NCBI RefSeq assembly: GCF_964213995.1
Contig: NC_135808.1
Coordinates: 620,001 to 684,000, forward strand
Length of the DNA stretch: 64,000 nt
From: Mustelus asterias
Lineage: Eukaryota
Direction: 5' to 3'
How positions within the stretch are numbered: the first letter of the stretch is position 1; each line of letters opens with the position of its first letter. Under the pieces are notes generated by a model. That model was not told the origin of the DNA and did not search any database. It was given only the letters and a program-made list of their open reading frames with translations. This document shows, one piece after another, positions 3,793 through 44,309 of the stretch. The translations under genes and the position numbers were made by a program.

Positions 3793-4376
3793 ATGATATT
3801 AATGTGGGGAGATTGGATGTTACGGTCCAATATGATCATGGCTAATCTTCAGCTTTAACTCCACTTTCCTGTCCAGCCCCCGATACTGAATACACTGAAT
3901 TCTGTCTGTCCCAGACATAAACATATTCAATGACGGAGCATCCGCTATCCTCTGAGGTAGAGAATTCCACAAACTTGGAACTCTGGAGTGAAAAGATTTC
4001 TCCTCATCTCAGTCATAATTGATTGGCCCCCTTATCCCAAGCCTGGGACACCGCGTTTCAGATTCCCCAGCCAGGGAGAAAGCAACCTCCCGTCAAGGCC
4101 CTTCAGAACGTTTTAATGAGATCACCCTTCATTCTGAAGTCCAGACAATACAGACCCAGCTGACTCAATCTCTCATCATAGGGCAACTCTCTCACCCCCA
4201 ACCTAAAGCACATCTTCAACTTGCACAATGCTGCCCTCCTGGGCAGATTAAACAGAAAGTACAAGTTTGAAAATGTGGTCAGTAACTGTGCTACATCGGA
4301 GAACAAACATTTCCTCTAGGCAGGCAGGTGTAACCGAGGTTGGATTGGTGCAATATTGGCGCAGTGGTATTGTCAC
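3441..4376. repeat. Left arm of a ~0.9 kb inverted duplication (partner 7020-7926)
   Basis: Same series of SINE/Rex1/CR1 junctions is present in reverse complement at 7020-7926. Confidence 0.9.
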
Positions 4377-4712
4377 TCGACTAGTGATGCAGAGGCCTAA
4401 GACAATGTTCTGGGGACCCAGGTTTGAATCCCAAAGTGGCAGATTGTGAAATTTGAATTCAATAAAAAGCTGGAATGAAGAGTCTAATGAGCACTGTTCA
4501 TTGTTGTAAAAACCCATCTGGTTCACTAATGTCCTTTAGGGGAAGGAAATCTGCCGTCCTTACCCAGTCTGGCCTACATGTGACTCCAGACCCACAGCAA
4601 CGTGGTCGACTCTGAAACGCTGCTCTGTAGTGGCCGAGCGAGTCACTCAGTTCAAGGGGCAATTAGGACTGGGCAATAAATACTGGGCCCAGCCAGTGAC
4701 ACCCACATCCCT
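4357..4712 (+). mobile_element. Second tRNA-derived SINE family
   Basis: ggcgcagtggtattgtcact...ggtttgaatccc head, core cccatctggttcactaatgtcctttaggg, tail ggcaataaat...cccacatccc. Further copies at ~5137-5575, 8588-8968, 11222-12598, 26845-27200 (-) and 38780-39135 (-). Confidence 0.75.
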
Positions 4713-4816
4713 CAACACTTCCCCTGATTTATACCTTGAAGGTTGTTCTACATGGCTTTTATGTTTATCAAAATGATAATTCAGTCCCAATCATTGCCAA
4801 AATATGCAGCCCTCAC

Positions 4817-4847
4817 CTGATCAACGGAGTGCAGGGTTCCACAGATA
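4817..4847 (-). CDS. LSM2: LSM2 exon 3 (31 nt)
   Basis: tttttcag|t-ICGTLHSVDQ|gtgagg. Completes the Ser codon split from exon 2. Confidence 0.96.
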
Positions 4848-7019
4848 CTGAAAAAAAATGAGAAAAGGTTGATATTTTTATGCCAGAAATCAAGTCTCAC
4901 CATCATTTAACTTCCTAACTAAACAACGCACTTAAGCTTCTCACACACACCCCCACTCTTAATTACTTGAAGCAGAAACAGGCCATTCAGCCCAACAGGT
5001 CTAGGCTGGTGTTTCTGCCCCACACAAGCCTCCTCTAACCCCAGCAACATATCCCTTAATTTGTGTGTTTATACAGCTTGGCCTTACATGGATCTATGCC
5101 ACTCCCCTCCACTACTCCTTGTGGCAGCAAGTGGGAAGGCGGTGCGTAGTGGTATTGTCATTGGACTATTACTCCAGAGACTCAGGGTTATGCTCTGGGG
5201 ACCCGGGTTCAAATTCTAGCACAGCAGAATAAAAATCTGTAATTAAAAGTCTAATGATGACCATGAAACCATTGTCGATTGTCGCAAAAACCAATCTGCT
5301 TCACTAATGTCCTTTAGGGAAGGAAATCTGCCATCCTTACCTGGTCTGGCCGACATGACGGGAATAGGGCCCAGGTGGGATTGTGGTCGGTGCCGACTGA
5401 ATGGGCCGAATAGCCTCCTTCTGCACTGTAGGGATTCTACGATTCTGTGTGACTCCAGATCCACAGCAATGTGGCTGACTCTTAACTGCCCTCTGAATTG
5501 GCCGAACGAGACACTCAGCAATTAGGGATGGGCCCAAGTCAATGACACCCACATCCCATGAACAAATTTTTTAAAGTTCCACATTTCAATCACTTTGAGT
5601 CGAGAGGTTTCTGCTGAATTCCCAATTGGATTCCTTAATAATTAACTTATATTCACAGTCCTAATTTAGTCTCACCCACAAGTGAAATCATAAAGTGCAG
5701 ACCGTCCACAAACCTATAGGATATGCATGGAGCAAGCTACAGCAAAGATAAACATTCCTTTTAACAAGATAGAACTTGTGGAGACAGAAACTCAATGAAT
5801 GTTGCAGGTCATTGACAATTCACCAGAAAGTAATCATTATTCATTCATGGGACATGAACATCATGTCAAGACCAGCATGCATTTCCCATCCCTTCAGAAG
5901 GAGGTGGTGAGCTCCCTTCTTGAACCGCTGCAGTCCCTGAGGTCTAGGTACACCCACAGTGCTGTTAGGGAGGAAATTCCAGGATTTTGACCCAGCGACA
6001 TATATTTCCAAGTCAGGATGGTAAGTGACTTGGAGAGGAACCTCCAGGTGGGGGTGTTCCCAGTTTTCTGCTGCCCTTGTCTTTCTAGATGATAGCGGTC
6101 GTGGGTTGGAAGGAGCCTTGGTGAATCCCTCCAATGCATCTTGTAAATGGTACAACTACTGCCACTGGTGTCAATCAAATAGGGCTGCTTTCTCCTAGAC
6201 GGTGTTGAGCTTTGTAGAATCCCTCCAGTGCCAAAAGAGGCCATTTAGCCTATCGGGTCTACACCAACTCTCTGATAGAGCATCTTACCCAGGCCTATAC
6301 CCATAACCCCACATATTTACCCCATTAATTTCCCTAACCTTTACATCTTGGGACACGAAGAGGCAATTTAGCATAGCCAATCCACCTAACCTACACATCT
6401 TTGGACACTAAGGGACAATTTAGCATGGCCAATCCACCTAACCTACACATGTTTGGAGTGTGGGGAGAATATGCAAACCCCGCACAGTGACCCAAGGCCG
6501 GAATTGAACTCAGGTCCCTGGCACTGTGAAACGGCAGCGCTAACCACCATGCCTACTTGAGTATCTTTGGAGCTGCATTCATCCAGGCAAGTTAACTGCA
6601 TCACGCTCATGACCTGCACTTTGTGATGGTGGACAGGCTTTAGGGAGTCAGGTGGTGAGTTACTCGCCATGGAATACTCCGACTTGCTCTTGCTGCCACA
6701 GTATTTATAGAACTGGTCCAGTTACCCTTTTCAGTCAATGATGAGCCGAGGATGTTGGTGCTCAAAATGCTATCATTCAGCAATGCCACGGCATGTCAAG
6801 CTGAGGCGGTGAGAATCTCTCCTGTCAGAGATAATCCAACATTACTGCACCTAACCCGCACATCTTTGGAGTGTGGGAGGAAACAGCAGAACCCGGCGGA
6901 AACCTACGCAGACACGGGGACAATGTGCAAACTCCGCACAGACAGTGACCGAAGCCAGGAATTGAACCCGGGTCTCTTGCACTGTGAGGCAGCAGTGCTA
7001 ACCACTGTGCCGCCATGCT

Positions 7020-7926
7020 GTGACAACACCACTACGTCAATGTGGCACCAATCCAACCTGGGTTATACCTGCCTTCATTTGTTCTCCTATGTAACACGGT
7101 TACTGACCACATTTTCAAATTTGTACTGTTTAATCTGCTCGGGAGGGCAACATTGTGCAGGTTGAAGATGCGCTTTAAGTTGGGGGTGAGAGGGTTGCCT
7201 TATGAAGAGAGGTTGAGTCAGTTGGGTCTGTATTGTCGAGTTCAGGATGAGGGGTGATCTCATTGAAACGTTCTGAAGGACTTTGACAGGAGGTTGCTTT
7301 CCCCTTGGCTGGGGAATCTGAAACGCGGTGTCCCAGGCTTGGGATAAGGGGCCAATCAATTATGACAGAGATGAGGAGAAATCTTTTCACTCCCGAGTTC
7401 CAAGTTTGTGTAATTCTCTACCTCAGAGGGTAGCGGATGCTCCATCATTGAATATGTTTATGTCTGGGACACTCAGAATTCAGTGTCTCCAGTATCGAGG
7501 GCTGGACAGGAAAGTGGAGTTAAAGCTGAAGATTAGCCATGATCATATGGGACCGTAACTTCCAACCTCCCCACATTTAATATCATCTGATTGATTGTCA
7601 CATGTATTGTTTCTTGCGCACTATACAAAGAATACCATTCATTGAGTACATGGGGACAGAAAAAGGAGAGGATGCAGAATGTACAGTTATAATCACAGCT
7701 AGGGTGCAGCGAAAGATTAACTTAATACGAGGTAGATCCATTCAAAAATCACAAACATGTACGGGTTAGGTGGATTGGTCATGCTAAATTGGCCCTAGTG
7801 TCAGGGGGATTAGCAGGGTAAATATGTGGGGTTATGGGAATAGGGTCTGGGTGGGATTCTGGTCAATACAGACTCGATGGGCCAAATGGCCTCCTTCTGT
7901 ACTGTAGGGATTCTATGAAAAAGTCT
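7020..7926. repeat. Right arm of the inverted duplication (partner 3441-4376)
   Basis: ORF-track peptides at 4019-4270 (+) and 7087-7359 (-) are homologous, and junction sequences match. Confidence 0.9.
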
Positions 7927-10274
7927 ATGAAACTGTTTTTCTCTCTCTCCACAGATGCTGCCAGCCCTGCATTTTCTGCTTTTTATTCAGATTCCCAATA
8001 TCTGCAGTATCTTGCTTTGTATTAGCGTTTTACAAAGTCTGGACCTCATTATATTTTCAACTCCTGGAGAAAGGCTGGAACGTCAAAACAGTCACCTCAT
8101 TTTTATCAAAGTGGCATTAGTTAATTTGAGAAGAAAGTTCAGAACGGATTAAAAAGACTTGTATTTAATGGCAACTTGTATGACCAAACATCCTGAAGTA
8201 TTTTACAACCAATGAGGTATTTCTGAAGGATAATTACTGGCTTAACATAGGAAATGAGGCAGCCAGTTTGCACACTGAGCTCCCAAACAGAGCAATGTGA
8301 TAACCACCAGGGGTGGCATAGTAGCACAGTGATTAGCACTGCTACCTCACAGTGTCAGGGACCCGGGTTCAATTCCCAGCTTGGGTCACTGTCTGTGTGG
8401 ATCTGCACGTACTCCCCGTGGGTTTCCTCCGGGTGCTCCCGTTTCCTCACACAGTCCAAAAATGTGTTGGCTCGGTGCGCCACTTAAAAAGACGACAGTG
8501 CTGCACGACCTTCAGTGACGCACGGGAGTTTCAGCTTACATTTTGTCCTCAAGTCTCAGGATCCACAACCTTCTGACATAGAGGCAGAATGGCACAGTGG
8601 CACTGTCACTGGACTGGTAATCCAGAGGCCCAAGATAATGCTCTGGGAACCCAGGTTCAAATCCCACCACAGCAGATGGTGAAATCTGAATTCAACAAAA
8701 ATCTGGAATTCAAAGTGTAATGATGACCACGGGACCATTGCCAATTGTCAGAAAAATCCATCTGGTTCATTAATGTCCATTAGGGAAGGAAATCTGCTGC
8801 CCTTACCTGATCTGGCCTACATGTGACTCCAGAGCCACAGCAATGTGGTTGACTCAAAATAGCCTCTGAAATGGCCTAGCAAGCCACTCAGTTCAAGGGC
8901 AATAAGGGATGGGCAATCAATGCTGACCCAGCCAGCGACGCCCACGTCCCGCAAATGAATAAAAAACTAATGGCAATAAAGCATTTGGGAATATTACAGT
9001 CCTTCAAAGTTACAAGGGGGATAGATTCACTAAATCTCTGTGCAGAGCAGAAAGCAGACAGGTGGGAAGAATGAGGGGGGATCTTATAGAAACATATAAA
9101 ATTATAAAGGTAATAGATAAGATAGAAGCATGGAGGTTGTTTCCACTGGCAGGTGAAACTAGAACTAGGGGGCATAGCCTCAAAATAAGGGGGATTTCGG
9201 ACTGAGTTGAGGAGGAACTTCTTCACCAAAGGGTTGTGAATCTGTGGAATTCCATGCCCAGTGAAGCAGCTGAGGCTACCTCATTGAATGTTTTTAAGGC
9301 AAAGATAGATAGATTTTTGAACAGTAAATTAAGGTGAGCGGACGGTTAAGTGGAGCTGAGTCCTTGAAAAGATCAGCCATGATTTAATTGAATGACAGAG
9401 CAGGCTCGAGGGGCCAGATGGCCTACTCCTGCTCCTAGTTCTTATTATGATCGTGTTACTTATTTTTAAAAAGCTTAATGACCTTTGGTGACAGGAAGTT
9501 AGTTCATTCATTTTACCTTTTTTCTATTCAAATAATTGGAACAAAAGAAGTGTAGCGAAGGTTCACCAGACTAATTCCTGGGGTGGCAAGATTGTCATTC
9601 TAGGAAAGATTGGGTCAACTAGGCCTGTGTTCACTGGAATTTAGAAGAATGATAGGGGATCTCATTGAAATATATAAAATTCTGACGTGTGACGAGGGGA
9701 TGGGAGTGTCTGGGGGAGGGGGGGGTTAAATAGTATGTTGGCCTTCATAGCAAGAGGATTTCACTACAGGAGCAGCGATGCGGAGACCAAGTCACTGAAT
9801 ATCTTTAGACACTAAAGGCATCAAGGGATCAAGAGATATGGGCAGAAAGCTTGAGTGAGACATTGAGGTAGAGGATCAGCCATGATCATACTGCGTGGTG
9901 TAGCAGGCTCAAAGGGCCAAATGACCTACTCCTACTCTTATTTTCCTATGTTTCCATACCTCAGGAAGGTAACATTGGAGTGATAGTATTGCAAAATCTA
10001 AATAATCCCCTGGTGGGGGAACGTACAGCAAGTCCGAGAGTCTCTTTTCATTTCCTGCTCATGTAATCACACAGGATTGCCAACATACGCCCCGGAGTCA
10101 GACGCAGAGTTCACACACAGACAGCTTCCATGATGGTCAACAAGTTGGAAACGGTAACATTGGAAAGCCATTTGGAGGTTTCCTGTACTTCCTGCCCTAC
10201 AACGTGCTCAAACACCTCGTGAACACGTAACCTGCACAATACTGAAGAAGGGTAAACAATCACATAAGTTGTTT

Positions 10275-17019: not shown

Positions 17020-18939
17020 TCAATCAACTTCCTCAATTGTTGGACCACCAGAACGATCCTTTCCGACTTGCCCAGAGAATGACCCTTCCGGCATGCCTCC
17101 CTGGTGGAGCTTGGCAGTGATGGGTTTGCAAATCTTTTCCAAATCCTTCAATTGTTGCTCAAAGTCTTCCTTCTCGGCCCCTTGGTTCGCCTCCAGCCAG
17201 GATATGGCCTGGTTACACTTCTCAATCACTCTGTTCTTGTCTTCCTCGCTGATCTTGCCTTTAATTTTCTCCTCCTCCACCGAACTCTTCATGTTGAAGG
17301 CGTACGACTCCAGAGAGTTCTTGGCGGCGATCTTCTCACGCTGTTGGTCGTCTTGGGTTTTGTATTTTTCTGCTTCCTGCACCATCCTCTCAATCTCCTC
17401 CTTGCTCAGCCTGCCCTTGTCATTGGTGATGGTGATCTTGCTCTCTTTGCCGGTGCTCTTGTCCACAGCCGACACATTCAGGATGCCGTTGGCGTCGATG
17501 TCAAAGGTCACCTCAATTTGTGGCACTCCGCGTGGCACAGGGGGAATCCCACTCAGGTCAAATTTGCCCAGGAGGTTGTTGTCCTTGGTCATGGCTCTCT
17601 CTCCTTCATAGACCTGGATCAAGACGCCAGGCTGGCTGTCAGAATACGTGGTGAAGATCTGCGTCTGCTTGGTGGGAATGGTGGTGTTACGCTTGATGAG
17701 GGTGGTCATCACCCCTCCTGCTGTCTCCAGACCCAATGATAGTGGAGTGACATCCAACAGTAGAAGATCTTGAACATTCTCTGACTTATCCCCCATCAGA
17801 ATAGCTGCTTGAACGGCCGCTCCATAGGCCACGGCTTCATCAGGATTGATGCTCTTGTTTAGATCTCTGCCGTTGAAGAAATCTTGCAGCAGTTTCTGGA
17901 TCTTGGGGATGCGGGTGGAGCCCCCGACCAAGACAATATCGTTAACATGAGCTTTATCCATCTTGGCGTCTCTCAGAGCTTTCTCCACTGGTTCCAGAGT
18001 GCCTCTGAACAGGTCGGTGTTAAGTTCTTCAAACCGAGCCCTGGTGATGGAGGTGTAGAAATCTATCCCTTCAAACAGCGAGTCAATCTCCACACTGGCT
18101 TGTGTGCTGGAAGACAGGGTTCTCTTTGCTCTCTCGCAGGCTGTCCTCAGTCTCCTGACCGCCCTCTTGTTCTCACTGATGTCCCTCTTGTATTTACGCT
18201 TGAACTCCTCAATGAAGTGATTGACCATGCGGTTATCAAAGTCTTCTCCTCCCAAGTGGGTGTCACCCGCTGTCGATTTCACTTCAAAGATACCATCGTC
18301 AATTGTGAGAATGGAAACGTCGAAGGTGCCACCTCCCAAGTCAAAGATGAGAACATTGCGTTCCCCTCTGCCCTTCTTGTCTAGGCCGTAGGCAATGGCG
18401 GCTGCTGTTGGCTCATTGATGATCCGTAGGACATTAAGGCCAGCGATCACACCAGCATCCTTGGTTGCCTGGCGCTGGGAGTCATTGAAGTAAGCAGGAA
18501 CCGTGATCACGGCATTGCTGATGGTGTATCCCAGGTAGGCCTCAGCAATCTCCTTCATCTTGGTCAGCACCATGGAGGAGATTTCCTCAGGGTAGAATGT
18601 TTTATCCTCCCCCTTGTACTCGACCTTCACCTTGGGCTTCCCTGCGTCGTTCACCACCTGGAAGGGCCAGTGCTTCATGTCGGATTGGACCACTGGGTCG
18701 GTGAACTTTCTGCCAATGAGCCTCTTGGCATCAAAGATGGTGTTGGGCGGGTTCAGAGCCACCTGGTTCTTGGCGGCGTCTCCAATGAGCCTNNNNNNNN
18801 NNNNNNNNNNNNNNNNNNNNNNNNNNNNNNNNNNNNNNNNNNNNNNNNNNNNNNNNNNNNNNNNNNNNNNNNNNNNNNNNNNNNNNNNNNNNNNNNNNNN
18901 NNNNNNNNNNNNNNNNNNNNNNNNNNNNCTGCTTGCCAT
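17020..18939 (-). CDS. hsp70: Cytosolic HSP70 copy 1 (HSPA1-family), about 639 aa, N-terminus crosses an assembly gap
   Basis: Motifs [47 protein letters not shown] and C-terminal [11 protein letters not shown] at 18939 in aaagATGG context stays in frame across the N gap with the expected spacing to RLIGDAAK. Confidence 0.93.
18793..18928. other. Assembly gap (136 N) within HSP70 copy 1
   Basis: Run of N. Confidence 1.
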
Positions 18940-18949
18940 CTTTGCCAAC

Positions 18950-19450
18950 CCCTCCCCTCCCTCAATACGGCCTACTAGGGCTGCAAAATCTCGGCCACAC
19001 CACCAGGCCTACCCCCTCTCCTCCCCCCCGCGCTCTCCTGCCTACTGCTGCCACTCCCGCTCACCTCACTGCCTATTTATAGCCACGTGGCAGAGAGGGC
19101 CTCTGATTGACATCCGCGCCGCCCAATGGCCACGCCGGATCGCCGCCCCTTGGCAACGCTCCGGCCAATGAGGGAGGTCGCAGGGAGGAGGGGGGCGGGA
19201 CCGCTCTTCGGCTGATTGTGACGTCGGCGCCGCTGGAAGCCGCCCGCCGCGTGCTGGAAATGGCGCCAACCCCGAATTCAAATTTGAATTCCGCTCCAAC
19301 GGTCAGGTTCCCACAGTTGGGGCCTACTGGAAACTGATCGACTTTTAAAAATAAAAATCCCCCTCTACAGGCGATGATTGACCATCTTTGCACAATTATT
19401 GCGATATGTTGACGCCTGCCTGCCCGTTAGTTGCCATGAGAACCGTTGCA
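18950..19450 (-). promoter_or_regulatory. HSP70 copy 1 promoter
   Basis: TATAAATA (minus) 19074-19081, E-box CACGTG ~19084, several CCAAT boxes, CRE-like TGACGTC 19219-19225, X-box-like GTTGCCATGAGAAC 19430-19443. No clear three-unit HSE. Confidence 0.7.
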
Positions 19451-29619: not shown

Positions 29620-31530
29620 TTAATCGACCTCCTCAATTGTTGGACCGCTGAAGGAATTTCCTTTCCCAGCTTGGTCGCCAAAGCCAACTGGTACATCCCC
29701 TTGATATAGCTTGACGATAATTGGGTTGCAGACGTTTTCCAGCTTCCTCAGTTGCTCCTCAAACTCGTTGTTTCCCGCCTCCTGGTGCGCCTCCAGCCAC
29801 GAAATGGCCTGGTTGCATGCTTCAATGGCCTTCTGCTTCTCTTCCTTGCTGATCTTGCCTTTCATTTTCTCCTCCTCCACCGAACTCTTCATGTTGAAGG
29901 CGTGTGACTCCAGGGAGTTCTTGGCGGCGATCTTCTTGCGCTGCTGGTCATCTTGGCCCTTGTATTTTTCCGCTTCCTGCACCATCCTCTCAATCTCCTC
30001 CTTGCTAAGCCTGCCCTTGTCATTAGTGATGGTGATCTTGCTCTCTTTGCCGGTGCTCTTGTCCACAGCCGACACATTAAGGATGCCGTTGGCATCGATG
30101 TCAAAGGTCACCTCGATCTGTGGCACTCCGCGTGGCACAGGGGGAATCCCACTCAGGTCAAATTTGCCCAGGAGGTTGTTGTCCTTGGTCATGGCTCTCT
30201 CTCCTTCATAGACCTGGATAAGGACACCGGGCTGATTGTCAGAATACGTGGTGAAGATCTGCGTCTGCTTGGTGGGAATGGTGGTGTTACGCTTGATGAG
30301 GGCGGTCATCACCCCTCCTGCTGTCTCCAGACCCAACGAGAGCGGAGCCACGTCCAGGAGGAGCAAATCTTGAACATTCTCCGACTTATCCCCCATCAGA
30401 ACAGCCGCTTGAACGGCCGCTCCATAGGCCACGGCTTCATCAGGATTGATGCTCTTGTTCAGCTCTTTGCCGTTGAAGAAATCTTGCAGCAATTTCTGGA
30501 TCTTGGGGATGCGGGTGGAGCCCCCGACCAAGACAACATCGTGGATCTGTGATTTGTCCATCTTGGCGTCTCGCAGAGCTTTCTCCACTGGTTCCAGAGT
30601 GCCTCTGAACAGGTCAGAATTCAGCTCCTCAAACCGAGCCCTGGTGATGGAGGTGTAGAAATCTATGCTTTCAAACAGAGAGTCAATTTCAATACTGGCC
30701 TGGGTGCTGGAGGACAGGGTTCTCTTTGCTCTCTCGCAGGCTGTCCTCAGTCTCCTGACCGCCCTCTTGTTCTGACTGATGTCCTTCTTGTATTTGCGCT
30801 TGAACTCCTCAATGAAGTGATTGACCATGCGGTTATCAAAGTCCTCTCCTCCCAAATGGGTGTCACCCGCTGTCGATTTCACTTCAAAGATACCATCGTC
30901 AATTGTGAGAATGGAAACGTCGAAGGTGCCACCTCCCAAGTCAAAGATGAGAACATTGTGTTCCCCTCTGCCCTTCTTGTCTAGGCCGTAGGCAATGGCA
31001 GCTGCTGTTGGCTCATTGATGACACGGAGGACATTGAGACCAGCGATCACACCGGCATCCTTGGTTGCCTGGCGCTGGGAGTCATTGAAGTAAGCAGGAA
31101 CCGTGATGACAGCATTGGTGACAGTGTGTCCCAGGTAAGATTCAGCCGTCTCCTTCATCTTGGCCAGCACCATGGAGGAGATTTCCTCAGGATAGAAGCT
31201 TTTATCCTCCCCCTTGTACTCGACCTTCACCTTGGGCTTCCCTGCGTCGTTCACCACCTGGAAGGGCCAGTGCTTCATGTCGGATTGGACCACTGGGTCA
31301 TCGAACTTCCTGCCAATGAGCCTCTTGGCGTCGAAGACGGTGTTCTGGGGGTTCAGAGCCACCTGGTTCATGGCAGCGTCTCCAATTAGCCTCTCGGTGT
31401 CATTGAAGGCCACGTAGCTGGGAGTGGTGCGGTTGCCCTGGTCATTGGCGATGATCTCCACCTTGCTCTGTTGGAAGACCCCCACGCAGGAGTAGGTGGT
31501 GCCCAGGTCGATGCCAATGGCTGCTGGCAT
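29620..31530 (-). CDS. hsp70: Cytosolic HSP70 copy 2 (HSPA1-family), 636 aa, uninterrupted CDS
   Basis: [15 protein letters not shown]...GPTIEEVD. True ATG at 31530 (aaccATG). AATAAA on the minus strand at 29261-29266. Confidence 0.96.
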
Positions 31531-31599
31531 GGTTCTTAACTCCTTGTGTGTGTGAGAGAGAGACACACAAACTCCTTAAGTCTGCGAAGGTGTCGCTGC

Positions 31600-33883: not shown

Positions 33884-35391
33884 TTACCATAAATCTATGC
33901 ATCCTGGTTTTTGACCCTTCTATTAATGGGAAGACTTTTGTTTTGTCCACCCTATCTATACCCCTCATAATTCTGCACATGTCAAACAGATCCCCCCGCC
34001 ACACACCATCCCCCCACCGCACCCCAAGATTGGGAATGGAGGGATACAAACGATTGGTCTAGTTGGACCAAGGAGCTGCACAGGCTTGGAGGGCCGAAGG
34101 GCCTGTTTCCTGTGCTGTACTGTTCTTTGTTCTTTGATTCTGCCTCTAGCTCAGGCATCATCCTGGTGAATCTACTCTGCACAGTCTCGAATGCAATTCC
34201 ATCCTTCCTACCCTAGTGGTGACCAGACCGGCACACAGTACTCTAGCTGTGGCCTATTAAGCAATTTATGCAGCTCCATCATAACCTCATTACTCTTATA
34301 TTCTATACCTTGGCTAATAAAGGCAAATGTCCATATGTTTATTTTAAACACCTTATCTATCTATCCTGCTGCCTTCAGGGACCTATGGACATGCACCCCA
34401 AGGTCCGTCTCATCCTCTGTACTTCTTACCATTCATTATGTATTCCCTTACCTTGTTAGTCCTCCCAAAGTGTATCATTTTTCATGGTTTAAATTCCATT
34501 TGCCGCTGTTCTGCCCATCTGACCAGCCCCATCTATATCATCCTGTAATCTAAGACTTTCCTCCTCGCTATTTACCACACCAGCAATTTTCATGTCATCT
34601 GCAAACTTATTGATCATGCCTCCTACATTTACATTCAGATCATTAATGTACATTGCAAACAGAAAGGGACCCAGCACCAATCCCTGAGGTACACCACAGG
34701 ACGTGAATAAATGTGGCAATTCAAGTCAGTGGAATACTGAAAGGAGAGCTGGAAATCCTGGACATGGATCCTTGCTGAAAACAGCTGAGGAAAGCATTGT
34801 TTAGAAGAAGATTCTAAGATGTGTCTTTTTTGAGGGTGGTGTTTGGGAAACACTCGCGTGGAGTCCAGTAAGATAAATGCACATGGGATTCGGGGTAATT
34901 TGATAAAGTGAATTCAAAATTGGCCCAGTTACAGGAAACAGAGTGTGATGACAGAAGATTACTTCAGTGACTGGAAGCCACTGTCCAGTGGCATACCACA
35001 GGGATCTGTGTTGGGTCCCCTATTATTCATCATTTATATAAATGACATAGATAATTATGTAGTGGGTATGGATAGTAAGTTTACGAGTGGCACAAGATTG
35101 GCTGGGCAGTTAAAAGTAAAGTGGAGTGTCTTGGGCGACAAGAAGATGTCGACGGAATTGACAAATGGGCAGATAAGATAATCCTGAAAAGTACACTTTA
35201 GAACAAGTAATTTAACAGGGACGTATTTGATGAATGGTAGGACACTAGGAAGTTCTGTGGAACAAAGGGAGTTTGGCGTGTTTGTCCACAGATCTCTGAA
35301 GGCGGAAGGGCATGTTAGTAAGGTAGGGAAAAAGGCATTTGGAACACTTGCTTTTATCAATTGAGGCATAGATTAGTAATTGAGGCATAGA

Positions 35392-36205
35392 CACCACACA
35401 ACCCTGCCACAGCAACCTCTGCAAGACGTGCCGGATCATCGACACAGATGCCATCATCTCACGTGAGAACACCATCCACCAGGTACACGGTACATACTCT
35501 TGCAACTCGGCCAACGTTGTCTACCTGATACGCTGCAAGAAAGGATGTCCCGAGGCATGGTACATTGGGGAAACTATGCAGACGCTGCGACAACGGATGA
35601 ATGAACACCGCTCGACAATCACCAGGCAAGACTGTTCTCTTCCTGTTGGGGAGCACTTCAGCGGTCACGGGCATTCGGCCTCTGATATTCGGGTAAGCGT
35701 TCTCCAAGGCGGCCTTCGCGACACACGACAGCGCAGAGTCGCGGAGCAGAAACTGATAGCCAGGTTCCGCACACACAAGGACGGCCTCAACCGGGATATT
35801 GGGTTTATGTCACACTATTTCACATAAATATTTCTGCTTTTTTCCTCCTGAGTCTTTATCATGCGATCCTAGAATCAGAATTTATGTCACACTATTTGTA
35901 ACTCCCACAGTTGCGTGGACCTGCAGAGTTTCACTGGCTGTCTTGTCTGGAGACAATACACATCTTTTTAGCCTGTCTTGATGCTCTCTCCACTCCCATT
36001 GTTTTGTTTCTTAAAGACTGGATTAGTTGTAAGTATTCGCATTCCAACCATTATTCATGTAAATTGAGTCTGTGTCTTATAAGTTCTGTTTGTGAACAGA
36101 ATTCCCACTCACCTGAAGAAGGGGCTCAGAGCCTCGAAAGCTTGTGTGGCTTTTGCTACCAAATAAACCTGTTGGACTTTAACCTGGTGTTGTTAAACTT
36201 CTTAC
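35392..36205 (+). mobile_element. Penelope-like element 3' fragment: GIY-YIG endonuclease plus terminal repeat with a hammerhead motif
   Basis: Translates as CKTC...SCNSANVVYLIRCKKGCPEAWYIGETMQTLRQRMNEH...VGEHF...RRVAEQKLI...GLN. catagatta is repeated at 35367-35375 and 36205-36213. Confidence 0.92.
36110..36146 (+). ncRNA. Minimal type I hammerhead ribozyme motif
   Basis: CAC-CUGAAGA-A-GGGGC-ucaga-GCCUC-GAAA-GCUU-GUG. Confidence 0.8.
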
Positions 36206-36506
36206 ATAGATTACAAAAGCAGGGAAGTCATGTTGGAGTTGTATTGAACTTTGATGGGGCCAGCTAGAGTACTGTGTGCAGTTCTGGTTGCCACATTATA
36301 GGAAGGATGTGATTGTACTGGAGGGGGTCCAGAGGAGATTCACCAGGATGCTGCCGAGGATGGAACATTTAAGTTATGAAGAGAGGTTGGGTAGGCTTGG
36401 GTTGTTATCTTTGATGTGGAGATGCCGGCGTTGGACTGGGGTAAGCACAGTAAGAAGTCTCACAACACCAGGTTAAAGACCAACAGGTTTATTTGGTAGC
36501 ACAAGC

Positions 36507-36541
36507 CACAAGCTTTCGGAGCGCTGCCCCTTCATCAGGTG
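36507..36541 (-). ncRNA. Minimal hammerhead ribozyme motif (left arm)
   Basis: Exact reverse complement of 36567-36601. Confidence 0.8.
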
Positions 36542-36566
36542 AGTGGGAATCTACAGAACTCCCACT

Positions 36567-36601
36567 CACCTGATGAAGGGGCAGCGCTCCGAAAGCTTGT
36601 G
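36567..36601 (+). ncRNA. Minimal hammerhead ribozyme motif (right arm)
   Basis: CAC-CUGAUGA-A-GGGGC-agc-GCUCC-GAAA-GCUU-GUG. Confidence 0.82.
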
Positions 36602-37124
36602 GCTTGTGCCACCAAATGAACCTGTTGGACTTTAACCTGGTGTTGTGAGACTTCTTACTGTTGTTATCTTTGGAGCAGAGAAGACTGAGGGGTTACCAGA
36701 TTGAGTTGTACAAGATTACGAGGGACATGGACAGAGTGGATAAGGAGCAGCTGTTCCTCTTCGTTGAACGGTCTGTCACAAGGGTACATAGATTCAAGAT
36801 GAGGGGCAGGAGATTTAGGGGGATGTGAGGAAAAGTGTTTTTACCCAGAGGGTGGTGACGGTCTGGAATGTGCTGCCTGGAGAGGTAATAGAGTCAGGGT
36901 GCCTCACATCCTTTAAAGAGCATCTGGGTGAGCACTTGGCATGTCATATCATTCAGGGCTATGGGCCAAGCGCTGGTAGATGGGATTAGCTGGGAGTTCA
37001 TACGTTTCTAATGTGCTGGTGCAGACTCGATGAGCTAAAGGACCTCTTCTGCATTGTATGATTCTATGAATATTGGATGATTCTATGAACATTAGGTATA
37101 TTTTGTAAACTGTGTTATCCTTAA

Positions 37125-38530
37125 AATCTCACAATACCAGGTTAAAGTCCAACAAACTTATTTGGAATCACGAGCTTTCAGAGCGTTGCTCCTTCGTCTG
37201 GAGTGCTGCTATTCCACTCACCTGATGATTTTGATTTGATTCATTATTGTCACATGTATTAACATACAATGAAAAGTATTGTCTCTTGCGCACTGTAGAG
37301 ACAAAGCATACCATTCATAGAGAAGGAAACGAGAGAGTGCAGAATGTAGTGTTACAGTCATAGCTCGGGTGTAGAGAAAGATCAACTTAGTGCGAAGTAG
37401 GTCCATTCAAAAGTCTGATCACAGCAGGGAAGAAGCTGTTCTTGAGTCGGTTGGTACGTGACCTCAGACTTTTGTATCTTTTTCCCCGATGGAAAAAGGT
37501 GGAAGAGAGAATGTCCAGGGTGCGTGGGGTCCTTAATTATGCTGGCTGCTTTGCCAAGGCAGCGGGAAGTGTAGACAGAGTCAATGGATGGGAGGCTGGT
37601 TTGCGTGATGGATTGGGCTACACTCACGACCTTTTGGAGTTCCTTGCGGTCATGGGCAGAGCAGGAGCCATACCAAGCTGTGATACAACCAGAAAGAATG
37701 CTTCCTATGGTGCTTCTGTAAAAGTTGGTGAGAATCGTAGCTGACATGCCAAATTTCCTTAGTCCTCTGAGAAAGTAGAGGCGTTGGTGGGCTTTTTTAA
37801 CTATAGTGCCAGTATGGAGGGACCAGGACACGTTGTTGGTGATCTAGACATCTAAAACCTTGAAGCTGTCGATCCTTTCTACTTCATCCCCATTGACGTA
37901 GACAGGGGCATGTTCTCCTTTACGCTTTCTGAAGTCAATGACAACCTCCTTCGTTTTGTTGACATTGACGCCAGTTCACCAGATTCCCTATCTCATTCCT
38001 GTACTCTGTCTTGTCATTGTTTGAGATCCGACCCACTATGGTGGTGTTGTCAGCAAACTTGAAAATCGAATTGGAGGGGAATTTGGCCGCACAGTCATTG
38101 GCGTATAAGTATAGTAGGGGACCGAGAACACAGCCTTGTGGGGCACCGGTGTTGAGGATGATCGTGGAGGAGGTGTTGTTGCCTATCCTAACTGATTGTG
38201 GTCTGTGAGTTAGTAAGTTCAGGATCCAGTCGCAGAGGGAGGTGCGAGGCCCAGGTCACGGAGTTTGGAGATGAGTTTCGTGGGAATAATAGTGTTGAAG
38301 GATGAACTAGGAGTCTGACATAGGTGTCCTTGTTATCTAGGTGTTCCAGGGTTGAGTGCAGGGCCAGGGAGATGGCGTCTGCTGTGGACCTGTTGCGGCG
38401 ATAGGTGAACTGTAGGAAGGAGTAGCGCTCCGAAAGCTCGTGATTCCAAATAAACCTGGTGGACTTTAGCCTGGTATTGTGAGAATTCTTACTGTGCCCA
38501 TCCTAGTCTAACGCTGGCATCGCCACATCA
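37125..38530. mobile_element. Palindromic Penelope-derived element 2, split by a Rex1-like LINE
   Basis: Halves at ~37125-37228 and ~38416-38530. Flanking direct repeat atccttaaaatct (37117-37129, 38530-38542). Confidence 0.85.
37229..38415 (-). mobile_element. Rex1/Babar-like LINE 3' fragment
   Basis: KKAHQRLYFLRGLRKFGMS...ILSGCITAWYGSC, upstream FADNTT-like RT remnant, (atcaa)n-like tail. Confidence 0.8.
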
Positions 38531-39342
38531 TCCTTAAAATCTGCATACATTTGTGAAGTGGGAGTTAATTATTATAGTCAAAAATTTCATGTTTAATAAA
38601 TGTTTATTTTCTGTTGTTAAAAGTTCCTGCGACTCTATTCATACACATTTTCTCAAAAAAAGTAAAAGTTACATTCTTTTGAGCCAGTATTCCAATCCAG
38701 GAACTTCCCATCCAGTATTAACAACAGGGATTGAAATTCCATGCACATACTTCCTTTTCAGATAACTTTGATTGGACCTTTTTTTTATTCATTCGTGGGA
38801 CATGGGCGTCGCTGGTTGGCCAGCATTTATTGCCCATCCCTAGTTGCCCGAGGGCAGTTGAGAGTCAAGCACATTGCTGTGGCTCTGGAGTCACATGTGG
38901 GCCAGACCGGGTAAGGATGGCAGATTTCCTTCCCTAAAGGACATTAGTGACCAGATGGGTATTTCTGGTAATCAACAATAGTCATCGGTAGATTCTTAAT
39001 TCCAGATCTTTGTTTCTCATTAAGTTCAAATTCCACTATCTGCCGTAGTGGGATTCGAACCTGGGTCCCAGAACATTAGCGGAATTTCTGGATTAATAGT
39101 CTGGCGATAATACCACTGGGCCATCGCCTCCCCTAACCTGTCTCCCATCACAATTTCAGGCAGTGCATTCCAAACCCTAACCACTCACTGTGAAAAAGTG
39201 TTCCCTCGTATCTCTATTACGCCTTTTACCAATTCCTTTAAATCTGTGCTCCCTCGTTCTCGATCCTTTTATAAGTGGGAACTGTTTCTCCCTCCCTACT
39301 CTGTCCAGACCCCTCACGATTTTGAGCATCTCTATCAAATCT

Positions 39343-39691
39343 CATAGAAACCCATAGAAACATAGAAACCCTACAGTGCAGAAGGAGGCCATTCGGCCCA
39401 TCGAGTCTGCACCGACCACAATCCCACCCAGGCCCTACCCCCACATATTTTACCCGCTAATCCCTCTAACCTATGCATCCCAGAACTCTAAGGGACAATT
39501 TTTTAACCTGGCCAATCAACCTAACCCGCACATCTTTGGACTGTGGGAGGAAACCGGAGCACCCGGAGGAAACCCACGCAGACACGAGGAGAATGTGCAA
39601 ACTCCACACAGACAGTGACCCGAGCCGGGAATCGAACCCGGGACCCTGGAGCTGTGAAGCAGCAGTGCTAACCACTGTGCTACCGTGCCGC
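39343..39691 (-). mobile_element. Intact young HE1-type SINE
   Basis: Full GGCGGCACGGTAGCACAGTGGTTAGC head through a gtttctat tail, inserted in a CR1 remnant. Confidence 0.85.
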
Positions 39692-39984
39692 CCTCTCAGC
39701 CTTCTCTTCTCCAAGGAAAAGAGTCCCAACTTCTCCAATCTACCTTCATAATTGAAGTTCCTCATCCCATAGAATCCCTATAGTGAAGGTGGCCATTCTG
39801 CCCATCGAGTCTGCATCCTACCCAGGCCCACCTCCCCCAATCTGCTGAAGCCCGTGTATTTACCATAGTCAATCTACCCAACCTACACATCTTTTGACAC
39901 AAATGGGCACTTTAGCATGGCCAACCCACCTATGGAGTGTGAGAGGAAACCGGAGGAAATCCATGCAGACACAGGGAATTCGTA

Positions 39985-40580
39985 GAATCATAGAAAAGTT
40001 ATAGCATAGAATGTAGCTATTTGACCCATCTTGTCCATGTCAGCCCAAGGACACCCACGTGCCCTTTCTAATCCCACCTTCCTGCATCCAGCCCATAGCC
40101 CTGTAGCTTTCAGCACTTAATGTGCAGATCCAGGTACTTTATAAAGGGGTTTAGGGTCTCTGCCTCCACCACCAACTCAGGCAGCAAATCCTACACACCC
40201 AGCACACTCTGCGTAAAAAAAGTTATTCCTCATGTTCCCTCTACACCTACTGCCGCTCATCTTGAATCTATGCCCCCGGTTCTAGAATTCTCCACTGAGG
40301 GAAACAGTTTCATCCTGTCGACTGTCTCTCTCCCACTCAGAATTTTGTACACTTCTATCAAGTCACCCCTCAGCCTTCCTCATCCCAAGGAAAATAACCC
40401 CAACCAATCCAATCTCTCCTCATAGCTACACATTTCTAGTCCTGGCAACATTCTTGTAAACCTTCTCGGAATTCTCTCCAGAGCAATTACTGTAATATAT
40501 AGTGACCAGAACTGCGCACAATACTCCAGTTGTGGACTCACCAGTGTTTTATACAATTCCAACATTATATCCTTTTATAT
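39985..40580 (-). mobile_element. CR1 3' fragment
   Basis: LELYKTLVSPQLEYCAQFWS. Confidence 0.8.
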
Positions 40581-40968
40581 CTCTGCCAATGAATGAGAGC
40601 GTTCTTTATGTCTTCTTTACAATTTTGTCTACTTGAACTGCTGCCAATATGTCTTTTCTTCGGAACTGCTATCAGGATCTTCTTTGCTTCTGTCAAAGCT
40701 CCCTTCAATCTCCTTTGCCTCCAGGATAACAAGCTCAGATTCTCCACCCTCACCTTGTATTAAATGCCCTCATCCCTGGAACCATTCTGCTAAATCCACT
40801 CTATACTCTCACATCCTTCCTATAAAAAAAGTGTGGTGACCAGAACTGGATGTGACAATCTGGTTGGAGCTTAAACAAAGCCTCAAGTCAGTATAACTGT
40901 TCTACTTTTGTGCTCAAAGCTCTATGAAACCCAGGATCCCATATGGTTTGATAATTACTGATTCAATA

Positions 40969-41147
40969 TGACGTGGAGATGCCAGCGTTCCACTGGGGTG
41001 GGCACAGTCTTAACAGATTTATTTGGAATCATGAGCTTTTGGAGCACTGCTCCTTCGTACTTCACCTGATGGAGTAGCACTCTGAAAGCTCGTGATTCCA
41101 AATAAAGCTGTTGGACTTTAACCTGGTGTTGTGAGATTTCTTACTGA
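40969..41147. mobile_element. Palindromic Penelope-derived element 3 (degenerate)
   Basis: Same tail and arms with deletions. Flanking direct repeat ttactgattcaatat (40955-40969, 41141-41155). Hammerhead core decayed. Confidence 0.8.
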
Positions 41148-42255: not shown

Positions 42256-44184
42256 TTAATCCACCTCCTCCACAGTTGGTCCTGTGGAATTGACATTCCC
42301 AGCCTGGGCTCGGCAAGATCCCCCAGCTGCTGCTGCTCCTCCTTGGTACAGGTTGGCAATGACGGGACGGCAGAGATTTTCCAGCTCTTTCAGCTGGTAC
42401 TCAAACTCCTCCTTCTCTGCCGTCTGATTGCTCTCCAGCCACTGGATGGCCTGGTTACACTGCTCAATGATTTTCTTCTTCTCTGCCTCACTGATCTTAT
42501 TTCTCACGCTCTCATCCTCCACCGCGCTCTTCATGTTGAAGGCATAGGACTCCAGGGAGTTCTTGGCTGCGATCCTCTGCCGCTGGACTTCATCCTGGCT
42601 TTTGTACTTTTCTGCATCCAGCACCATCCTCTCAATCTCCTCCTTGCTCAGCCTGCCCTTGTCATTGCTGATGGTGATCTGGTTTGTTTTGCCTGTGCTC
42701 TTGTCAACTGCAGAGACATTGAGGATGCCGTTGGCGTCAATATCGAAGGTGACCTCGATCTGTGGCACCCCACGGGGGGCAGGAGGGATGCCACTCAACT
42801 CAAACCTGCCCAGGAGGTTGTTGTCCTTGGTCATGGCTCTCTCTCCTTCGTACACCTGGATGAGGACACCGGGCTGGTTATCAGAGTAGGTGCTGAAGAC
42901 CTGGCTCTGCTTGGTGGGAATGGTGGTGTTACGCTTGATGAGGGCGGTCATCACCCCTCCTGCTGTCTCCAGACCCAGAGACAGGGCAGCCACGTCCAGG
43001 AGGAGCAAATCCTGAACATTCTCCGACTTATCCCCCATCAGAACAGCCGCTTGAACGGCCGCTCCAAAGGCCACGGCTTCATCAGGATTGATGCTCTTGT
43101 TCAGCTCTTTGCCGTTGAAGTAATCTTGCAGCAGTTTCTGGATCTTGGGGATGCGGGTGGAGCCCCCGACCAAGACAACATCTTGGATCTGTGATTTGTC
43201 CATCTTGGCGTCTCGCAGAGCTTTCTCCACTGGTTCCAGAGTGCCTCTGAACAGGTCAGAATTCAGCTCCTCAAACCGAGCCCTGGTGATGGAGGTGTAG
43301 AAATCTATGCCTTCAAACAGAGAGTCAATCTCAATACTGGCCTGGGTGCTGGAGGACAGGGTTCTCTTTGCTCTCTCGCAGGCTGTCCTCAGTCTCCTGA
43401 CCGCCCTCTTGTTCTGACTGATGTCCTTCTTGTATTTGCGCTTGAACTCCTCAATGAAGTGATTGACCATACGGTTATCAAAGTCCTCTCCTCCCAAGTG
43501 GGTGTCACCCGCTGTCGATTTCACTTCAAAGATACCATCGTCAATGGAGAGAACAGAAACGTCGAAGGTGCCACCTCCCAAGTCAAAGATGAGAACATTG
43601 TGTTCCCCTCTGCCCTTCTTGTCTAGGCCGTAGGCAATGGCAGCTGCTGTTGGCTCATTGATGACACGGAGGACATTGAGACCAGCGATCACACCGGCAT
43701 CCTTGGTTGCCTGGCGCTGGGAGTCATTGAAGTAAGCAGGAACCGTGATGACAGCATTGGTGACAGTGTGTCCCAGGTAAGATTCAGCCGTCTCCTTCAT
43801 CTTGGCCAGCACCATGGAGGAGATTTCCTCGGGGGAAAAGATTTTATCCTCCCCCTTGTACTCGACCTTCACCTTGGGCTTCCCTGCATCATTCACCACC
43901 TGGAAAGGCCAGTGTTTCATGTCGGATTGGACCACCGCATCATCAAACCTCCTCCCGATGAGCCTCTTGGCATCAAAGATGGTGTTGGGCGGGTTCAGAG
44001 CCACCTGGTTCTTGGCAGCATCTCCAGTGAGCCTCTCGGTGTCGTTGAAGGCCACATAGCTGGGAGTGGTGCGGTTGCCCTGGTCATTGGCGATGATCTC
44101 CACCTTGCCATGCTGGAAGACCCCCACACAGGAGTAGGTGGTGCCCAGGTCGATGCCAATGGCTGTTCCTTTGGCTGCAGGCAT
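42256..44184 (-). CDS. hsp70: Cytosolic HSP70 copy 3, 642 aa, uninterrupted CDS, likely the heat-inducible paralog
   Basis: Complete [22 protein letters not shown]...[10 protein letters not shown]-rich 3' UTR with AATAAA (minus) at 41980-41985. Confidence 0.97.
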
Positions 44185-44309
44185 GTTGATTGTGGGTCAA
44201 AGTGGATGAGATGGAGTCTTTGTCGCTGCTGCTGTGCAGTGTTGCTGTGGCAGTGATCCAGTCACTCGGCGCTGTCTCTTCTCCCAGGCGATTGTGAGCC
44301 TCTGAGTTG

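Follow-up and report, generated by a model that had tools for sequence, protein, structure and literature searches.

Within the 64-kb window (the whole stretch of DNA analysed, 64,000 nucleotides), a short palindromic insertion with a one-sided tail splits a decayed LINE that we take, from its translated motifs, to be CR1-like. A longer relative of the insertion, belonging to the same Penelope-like element (PLE) family, lies immediately upstream. The features of the locus are as follows.

35390 to 36205, plus strand: longer tail-less copy of the same PLE family, of a different subfamily (88% alike); it carries a hammerhead itself, near 36110-36146
35390 to 35827, plus strand: C-terminal ORF piece of that copy, with a C-x4-C-x2-C linker and GIY-YIG
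36216 to 36960, plus strand: 3' part of the decayed ORF2 of the CR1-like host LINE, split by the insertion
36401 to 36413, plus strand: left 13-bp copy of the target-site duplication, whose last 2 nt also fit the element template
36414 to 36447, minus strand: PLE tail of 34 nt, running into the ORF start codon in full-length copies
36448 to 36548, minus strand: inverted, 5'-truncated pLTR arm, bearing the tail
36507 to 36541, minus strand: minimal type I hammerhead, predicted cut between 36510 and 36509
36549 to 36552, no strand: copy-specific junction filler
36553 to 36660, plus strand: sense pLTR arm, 5'-truncated and tail-less
36567 to 36601, plus strand: minimal type I hammerhead, predicted cut 36598/36599
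36567 to 36569 and 36599 to 36601, plus strand: stem I of this hammerhead
36570 to 36590, plus strand: its CUGAUGA (36570-36576), extra A (36577) and stem II (36578-36590)
36591 to 36598, plus strand: its GAAA (36591-36594), AGCU palindrome (36594-36597) and N17 (36598)
36660 to 36672, plus strand: right 13-bp copy of the target-site duplication

The architecture given in the preliminary description was reproduced. The inverted arms, 36448-36548 and 36560-36660, are each 101 nt long and differ by 3 mismatches (36479, 36490 and 36498); the loop between them is the 11 nt at 36549-36559, the 34-nt tail stands on a single side, and direct repeats of 13 nt flank the insertion. The hairpin has a fold energy of -215 kcal/mol (z -25.7), which 0 of 200 shuffles equalled. 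Given that 19 paralogous copies of the LINE, from the window and from fetched loci, cross the site without an insert, the 13-bp repeat is a true target duplication, and the earlier claim of an inverted, tailed end inserted with target duplication holds. Within the 11-nt loop, the seven bases 36553-36559 belong to the template of the sense arm, which leaves just ~4 filler bases. The arms of the insertion (36414-36660) do not end at the predicted hammerhead cut. RNA editing of a hairpin intermediate was considered and rejected: G>A and C>T predominate among the differences between arms, followed by T>C and A>G, the pattern of ordinary decay.

All five PLE members found in the window fall inside less than 6 kb (35390-41146). 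Besides the upstream copy and the insertion, these are 37124-37228, a sense arm with tail at 38416-38531, and an older short palindrome with a 14-bp duplication at 40968-41146. At its ORF end the upstream copy has a 77-bp internal duplication (35804-35897) that is shared with another locus, L036 (100% over 817 nt), and is a young subfamily marker. The insertion sits between the second and third of three tandem, intronless open frames, all on the minus strand (17020-19008, 29620-31575 and 42256-44196), which from their translated sequence are presumably HSP70-like.

The Penelope origin claimed for the insertion was borne out by an intact element elsewhere in the genome, L158, which has an uninterrupted 892-aa ORF between direct pLTRs, a reverse transcriptase (RT) match and an inverted copy upstream. 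L158 is 91% alike to the arm of the insertion, and its protein matches RVT_1 (PF00078) at 35.6 bits (cut-off 29.6). No GIY-YIG match came from Pfam for either the full L158 protein or a piece from L064; the C-terminus of L158 is near-identical to the ORF piece 35390-35827 in the window, which matches GIY-YIG (PF01541) at 24.8 bits (cut-off 22.6). The C-x4-C-x2-C linker lies between RT and EN in both the window ORF piece and L158. According to PMC8557442, a CX2-5CxxC linker marks Neptune, and Nematis has such a motif too. On this shared linker motif, the parent would most likely belong to the Neptune clade. Atlas matches were RT and PF26215 clusters at 0.96, which we treat as a lead only, and a PDB sequence search with the 892-aa protein returned 0 matches. 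In two sequencing runs (X1 and X2, from organisms A and B), contigs span the ORF end and pLTR at at least 88%, indicating that the family is not confined to the source species.

The family is large: in the 3.68-Gb genome we counted 44,023 exact matches to the 32-nt tail and 110,784 matches to the hammerhead pattern, with 0 for either reversed control. We sampled the first 93 of 100 listed tail sites, all in the first 6.5 Mb of contig C1. Two arms, the tail and a target duplication of 9-16 bp were present at 60 of the 93, a single arm with a duplication at 8, and 25 were left unresolved; in 37 of the 60 two-arm sites the duplication was 12-13 bp. Since the places examined were the first listed on contigs C1 and C2 and were anchored on exact matches, our samples favour young copies. 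Scatter at the outer ends was at most 6 nt in 57 of the 60 sites and at most 7 nt in 51 of the 52 located, and the two arms met with a spacer or overlap of -8 to +10 nt in 49 of the 60.

The preliminary description had presented the insertion as a non-autonomous element of repeated architecture. Such a discrete palindromic mini-element, MITE- or retrozyme-like, would be transcribed as a hairpin and moved whole by PLE protein, and several observations agree with it. Outer ends and tail are fixed, and the genome holds at least 40 near-full-length look-alikes of the insertion at 82-95% identity. The 30 best loci amount to 25 distinct places once 5 opposite-strand duplicates are dropped, and 19 of these 25 have exact duplications of at least 9 bp. 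The same palindrome, however, did not recur: all 25 differ in their centre, and a 33-mer over the centre of the insertion occurs once in the 3.68-Gb genome with up to 1 mismatch allowed. The inner breakpoints, which this reading expects to be shared, instead vary continuously between the fixed outer ends, with arms of 22-1,881 and 32-1,907 nt in the 60 two-arm sites (10 of them the size of the insertion), and the same palindromic layout extends to L063, whose 1.9-kb arms encode RT. This is the outcome that the preliminary description had itself named as refuting its interpretation.

Other copies of the sequence argue in the same direction. The exact 45-mer of the insertion has 295 genome occurrences, and the 30 arms examined around it range from 98 to more than 1,590 nt; 5 match the insertion in size and 14 have enough length to extend to the ORF, so that no separate lineage is apparent. 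In favour of the mini-element, 744 palindromic loci are centred in one 30-nt zone just 5' of the hammerhead and some centres recur identically, one of them in 16 of the first 50 of these loci (counted by eye). That shared centre is the template's own GAATTC palindrome, and 8 stem-II variants are found among the 16 loci, which speaks against a single mobile unit. Within each of the 16, both arms carry the same stem-II variant wherever both were read. Recurrent centres are thus attributable to short palindromes in the template. Element-private variants present in both arms were also rare (4 against 66 singletons). The mini-element reading is largely refuted, and we consider it highly improbable. 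Together these data indicate that the insertion is very probably a dead short product of an autonomous, high-copy PLE, most likely Neptune, rather than something that propagates as a palindrome.

We propose that such products form as follows. The GIY-YIG nuclease would cut both target strands ~12-13 nt apart, as the duplication lengths suggest. Each target 3' end would then prime RT on the element RNA, one at the tail end and one ~34 nt further in, two starts to which the two fixed outer ends point. Both cDNAs would stop early, in this copy just 5' of the hammerhead, and microhomology, snap-back or a small number of filler bases would link their ends, so that every such head-to-head palindrome acquires a centre of its own. 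The hammerhead would be the pLTR ribozyme of the parent, carried along in both arms. We infer two-ended priming and joining of truncated cDNAs from the fixed outer ends and the close meeting of the arms; as the steps are read from end products, the junctions alone would not separate twin priming from snap-back.

The lengths of the two arms bear on this distinction. Across the 60 two-arm sites arm lengths are correlated (rho 0.85), and 34 of the sites have arms within 25% of each other compared with 15% after permutation. The correlation is similar inside the largest subfamily group (rho 0.86, n=37) and in the 15 sites that have two arms in a further set of 25 loci (rho 0.89). In short copies the arms agree within 10 nt in 22 of 32 where 6.3 were expected, and pairs of one short and one long arm number 6 against 29 expected. 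The subfamily of the insertion itself showed no arm-length correlation (rho 0.03 over 20 two-arm elements, with about 0.8 expected under similar selection), and its arms lie within 20 nt in 4 of 20 elements against 1.2 expected. Taken together, this is an excess of near-symmetric products rather than a universal coupling.

Such symmetry is what would be anticipated if a single primed cDNA folded back at its truncated end and copied itself, the second arm then being a DNA copy, and the preference of centres for self-complementary template motifs also fits this snap-back. On the other hand, in 18 of the 60 sites the arm without the tail exceeds the other in length by more than 25%, yet the tail is only obtainable from RNA. 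Both outer ends look independently primed, a few elements (L007, L081) have arms that differ at subfamily-diagnostic sites, and the correlation is absent in the insertion's own subfamily. We regard single-primer snap-back as a possible but rather doubtful explanation of the whole; it may be one of several routes by which the centre is resolved. A self-priming idea close to it was proposed in PMC3846280.

A third explanation concerns events after integration, in which long insertions were later shortened by symmetric central deletion. Long perfect palindromes are unstable, and short symmetric copies do predominate. Against this, arm-to-arm identity, used as a proxy for age, is related neither to arm length (rho 0.10) nor to symmetry (rho 0.03), the symmetry is equally strong in the 21 youngest copies, and a 3.8-kb palindrome persists. 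We consider central deletion unlikely, and retain two-ended priming with variable joining as the preferred account.

Several individual loci were recorded alongside these counts. At L041, L070, L108 and L123 a stretch of foreign DNA (71-426 bp) separates the two arms within a single target duplication and looks as if captured during joining. Two sets of loci (L007/L030/L142/L144 and L031/L096/L049/L203) each consist of insertions that arose independently in separate copies of a host repeat, at an identical or almost identical site; the shared duplicated target suggests target preference. Arms differing at diagnostic positions, seen at L014, L015, L054 and L069 as well as at L007 and L081, may reflect two RNA templates or later gene conversion. 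At L155 (G000:C1:26967535-26967578) a palindrome running from tail to ORF start has the opposite, tail-to-tail arrangement and extends into the first codons of the ORF.

With regard to the ribozyme, a hammerhead core had been claimed in both arms, and each indeed contains CAC-CUGAUGA-A-stem II-GAAA-GCU-U-GUG. Its assignment as a minimal type I hammerhead with AGCU instead of stem III was upheld at the family level, where AGCU, the palindrome at 15.1-16.1 that would form stem III in a dimer, is present in 159 of 168 motifs. In the same set, 166 have U, A or C at position 17 (core CUGANGA...GAAA...UH, with H at 17) and position 7 varies between A, C and U. We compared 15 variants, namely this copy and 14 of the 21 variants seen at least 2 times. 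Stems I and II were paired in 120 of 120 cells, compared with 23-55% for slid controls, although this figure is no probability because the rows are related subfamilies. Two stem pairs were changed on both sides, and the extra base after A9 and the G10.1-C11.1 pair are present. By covariation, the hammerhead is a genuine motif, and self-cleavage is predicted.

Agreement with covariance models, a check that the preliminary description had proposed, was not obtained: Rfam gives no hammerhead match at E<=10, its matches to the insertion being sub-threshold microRNA hairpins alone. The monomer fold of one arm likewise contains no hammerhead structure (z about 0). Both results are expected of a dimeric or protein-assisted ribozyme, but also of a poor one. 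Given that the long hairpin would pair both ribozymes away, this particular copy is probably inert as a ribozyme.

If the hammerhead cleaves in other copies, arms might be found that end at the scissile bond, and we evaluated this in the main subfamily, the sole one counted genome-wide, in which 51,979 arms reach the predicted cut. Arms that diverge from the template two or three bases past the cut number 2,623 and 1,241, and the first base after the cut was already non-template in 57 of 100 and 26 of 100 listed rows (by eye). Among 60 loci fetched, all 23 with a non-template first base were true truncations, compared with just 9 of 17 and 10 of 20 in the remainder. We estimate that ~1,750 (1,440-2,030) of the 51,979 arms end exactly at the cut and ~590 and ~455 at the next two positions, giving ratios of 3.0 (1.8-5.6) and 3.8 (2.5-6.8). 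For the other side we took 1,020 palindromes with centres in the zone and counted the first 50, a design that favours shorter ends. There the longer arm of 39 placeable main-type elements ended at the cut in 15, and stopped one, two or three bases before it in 3, 5 and 1 respectively, a tally made by hand with some subfamily ambiguity. A separate pattern listing had 41 of 100 arms ending exactly at the cut (by eye), a count that is not independent since the edge of the pattern lies at the cut.

One reading is that cleavage yields a short 3' product of about 97 nt, from predicted cut to tail, whose reverse transcription from both target ends would account for the ~3-4% of main-subfamily arms that end at the scissile bond; we give this about an even chance, and these arms would then be an in-vivo cleavage record. 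A local, sequence-driven snap-back hot spot is a live rival for the same excess. Of the 57 cut-ending rows, 34 go on with TT or CT and are mostly joined to a nearby CTTTTG segment, so that such a hot spot could supply much of the excess, and without these rows the ratio drops to about 1.6-2. No cut-site peak was visible in the 60-site sample in 11-nt bins. Among 159 arms not picked for the cut, 2 end there, and none of the 72 from the main subfamily, where ~2.5 were expected (P 0.08).

The palindromic layout and the minimal hammerhead are both already published PLE features, and the single insertion is one of tens of thousands of dead stubs; the interest lies more in the family-level footprints. 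There is no settled account of how PLEs make inverted insertions with a tail, and the in-vivo activity of minimal PLE hammerheads is called 'still a mystery' in a review from 2020 (PMC7761336). In a genome that has an intact ORF, about 110,000 hammerheads and duplications that can be read, both questions become testable by breakpoint counts. If the cleavage reading is true, then together with the near-symmetry of short copies it would make the genome a 100,000-copy read-out of two-ended-priming Penelope integration, and would be the first in-vivo sign that minimal PLE hammerheads cut. For annotators, PLE stubs of this kind resemble MITEs or microRNA hairpins and are neither. Searches covering literature outside most subscription journals found no paper dealing with this family, with arm symmetry or with genomic ends located at the cuts of PLE hammerheads; Repbase or Dfam may well list the family.

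An inverted copy with a tail is a published PLE layout (PMC8557442; PMC3846280), and the family resembles canonical EN+ PLEs of the Neptune clade in having a single ORF of ~890 aa with RT and C-terminal GIY-YIG, pLTRs, an inverted 5'-truncated copy, a 30-40-nt tail at one end, a target duplication and a Zn-finger-like linker (same sources). It differs in that the two-armed stub is here the commonest product (60 of 93 sites) of a family with more than 44,000 exact tails, and in that the duplications are easily read, with a peak at 12-13 bp.

The ribozyme shares with the minimal PLE hammerheads of Cervera and de la Pena 2014 (PMC4209133; see also Lunse et al. 2017, via the review PMC6765202) the type I core, the extra base between 9 and 10.1, G10.1-C11.1, a palindromic 15.2-16.2 without stem III, and many covarying families. 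Pairs of opposite-strand hammerheads 100-700 bp apart were already taken in PMC4209133 to be probable truncated PLEs. By comparison, stem I as counted here is merely 3 bp, and the 110,784 matches stand against about 4,000-9,000 in coelacanth and Xenopus, by differing search methods.

A further counterpart is the green-anole Poseidon element PAc (Frangieh et al. 2024, PMC11167929), for which both target strands were cut and extended in vitro. There, as proposed here, two RT start sites bracket the tail, and a dimer is predicted. The ORF of PAc starts inside the hammerhead, whereas in the present family its start lies at the end of the tail, about 97 nt past the cut; and for PAc no RNA-seq reads were found to end at the cut, whereas here genomic arms pile up at that position. 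Metazoan non-LTR retrozymes (PMC11722881; PMC7761336) are likewise small and non-coding, carry a type I hammerhead and are thought to use PLE enzymes. They are tandem direct repeats with a sequence of their own and circular RNAs; by contrast, the insertion studied here comes from an autonomous element, of which it is an inverted piece, and its centre is unique.
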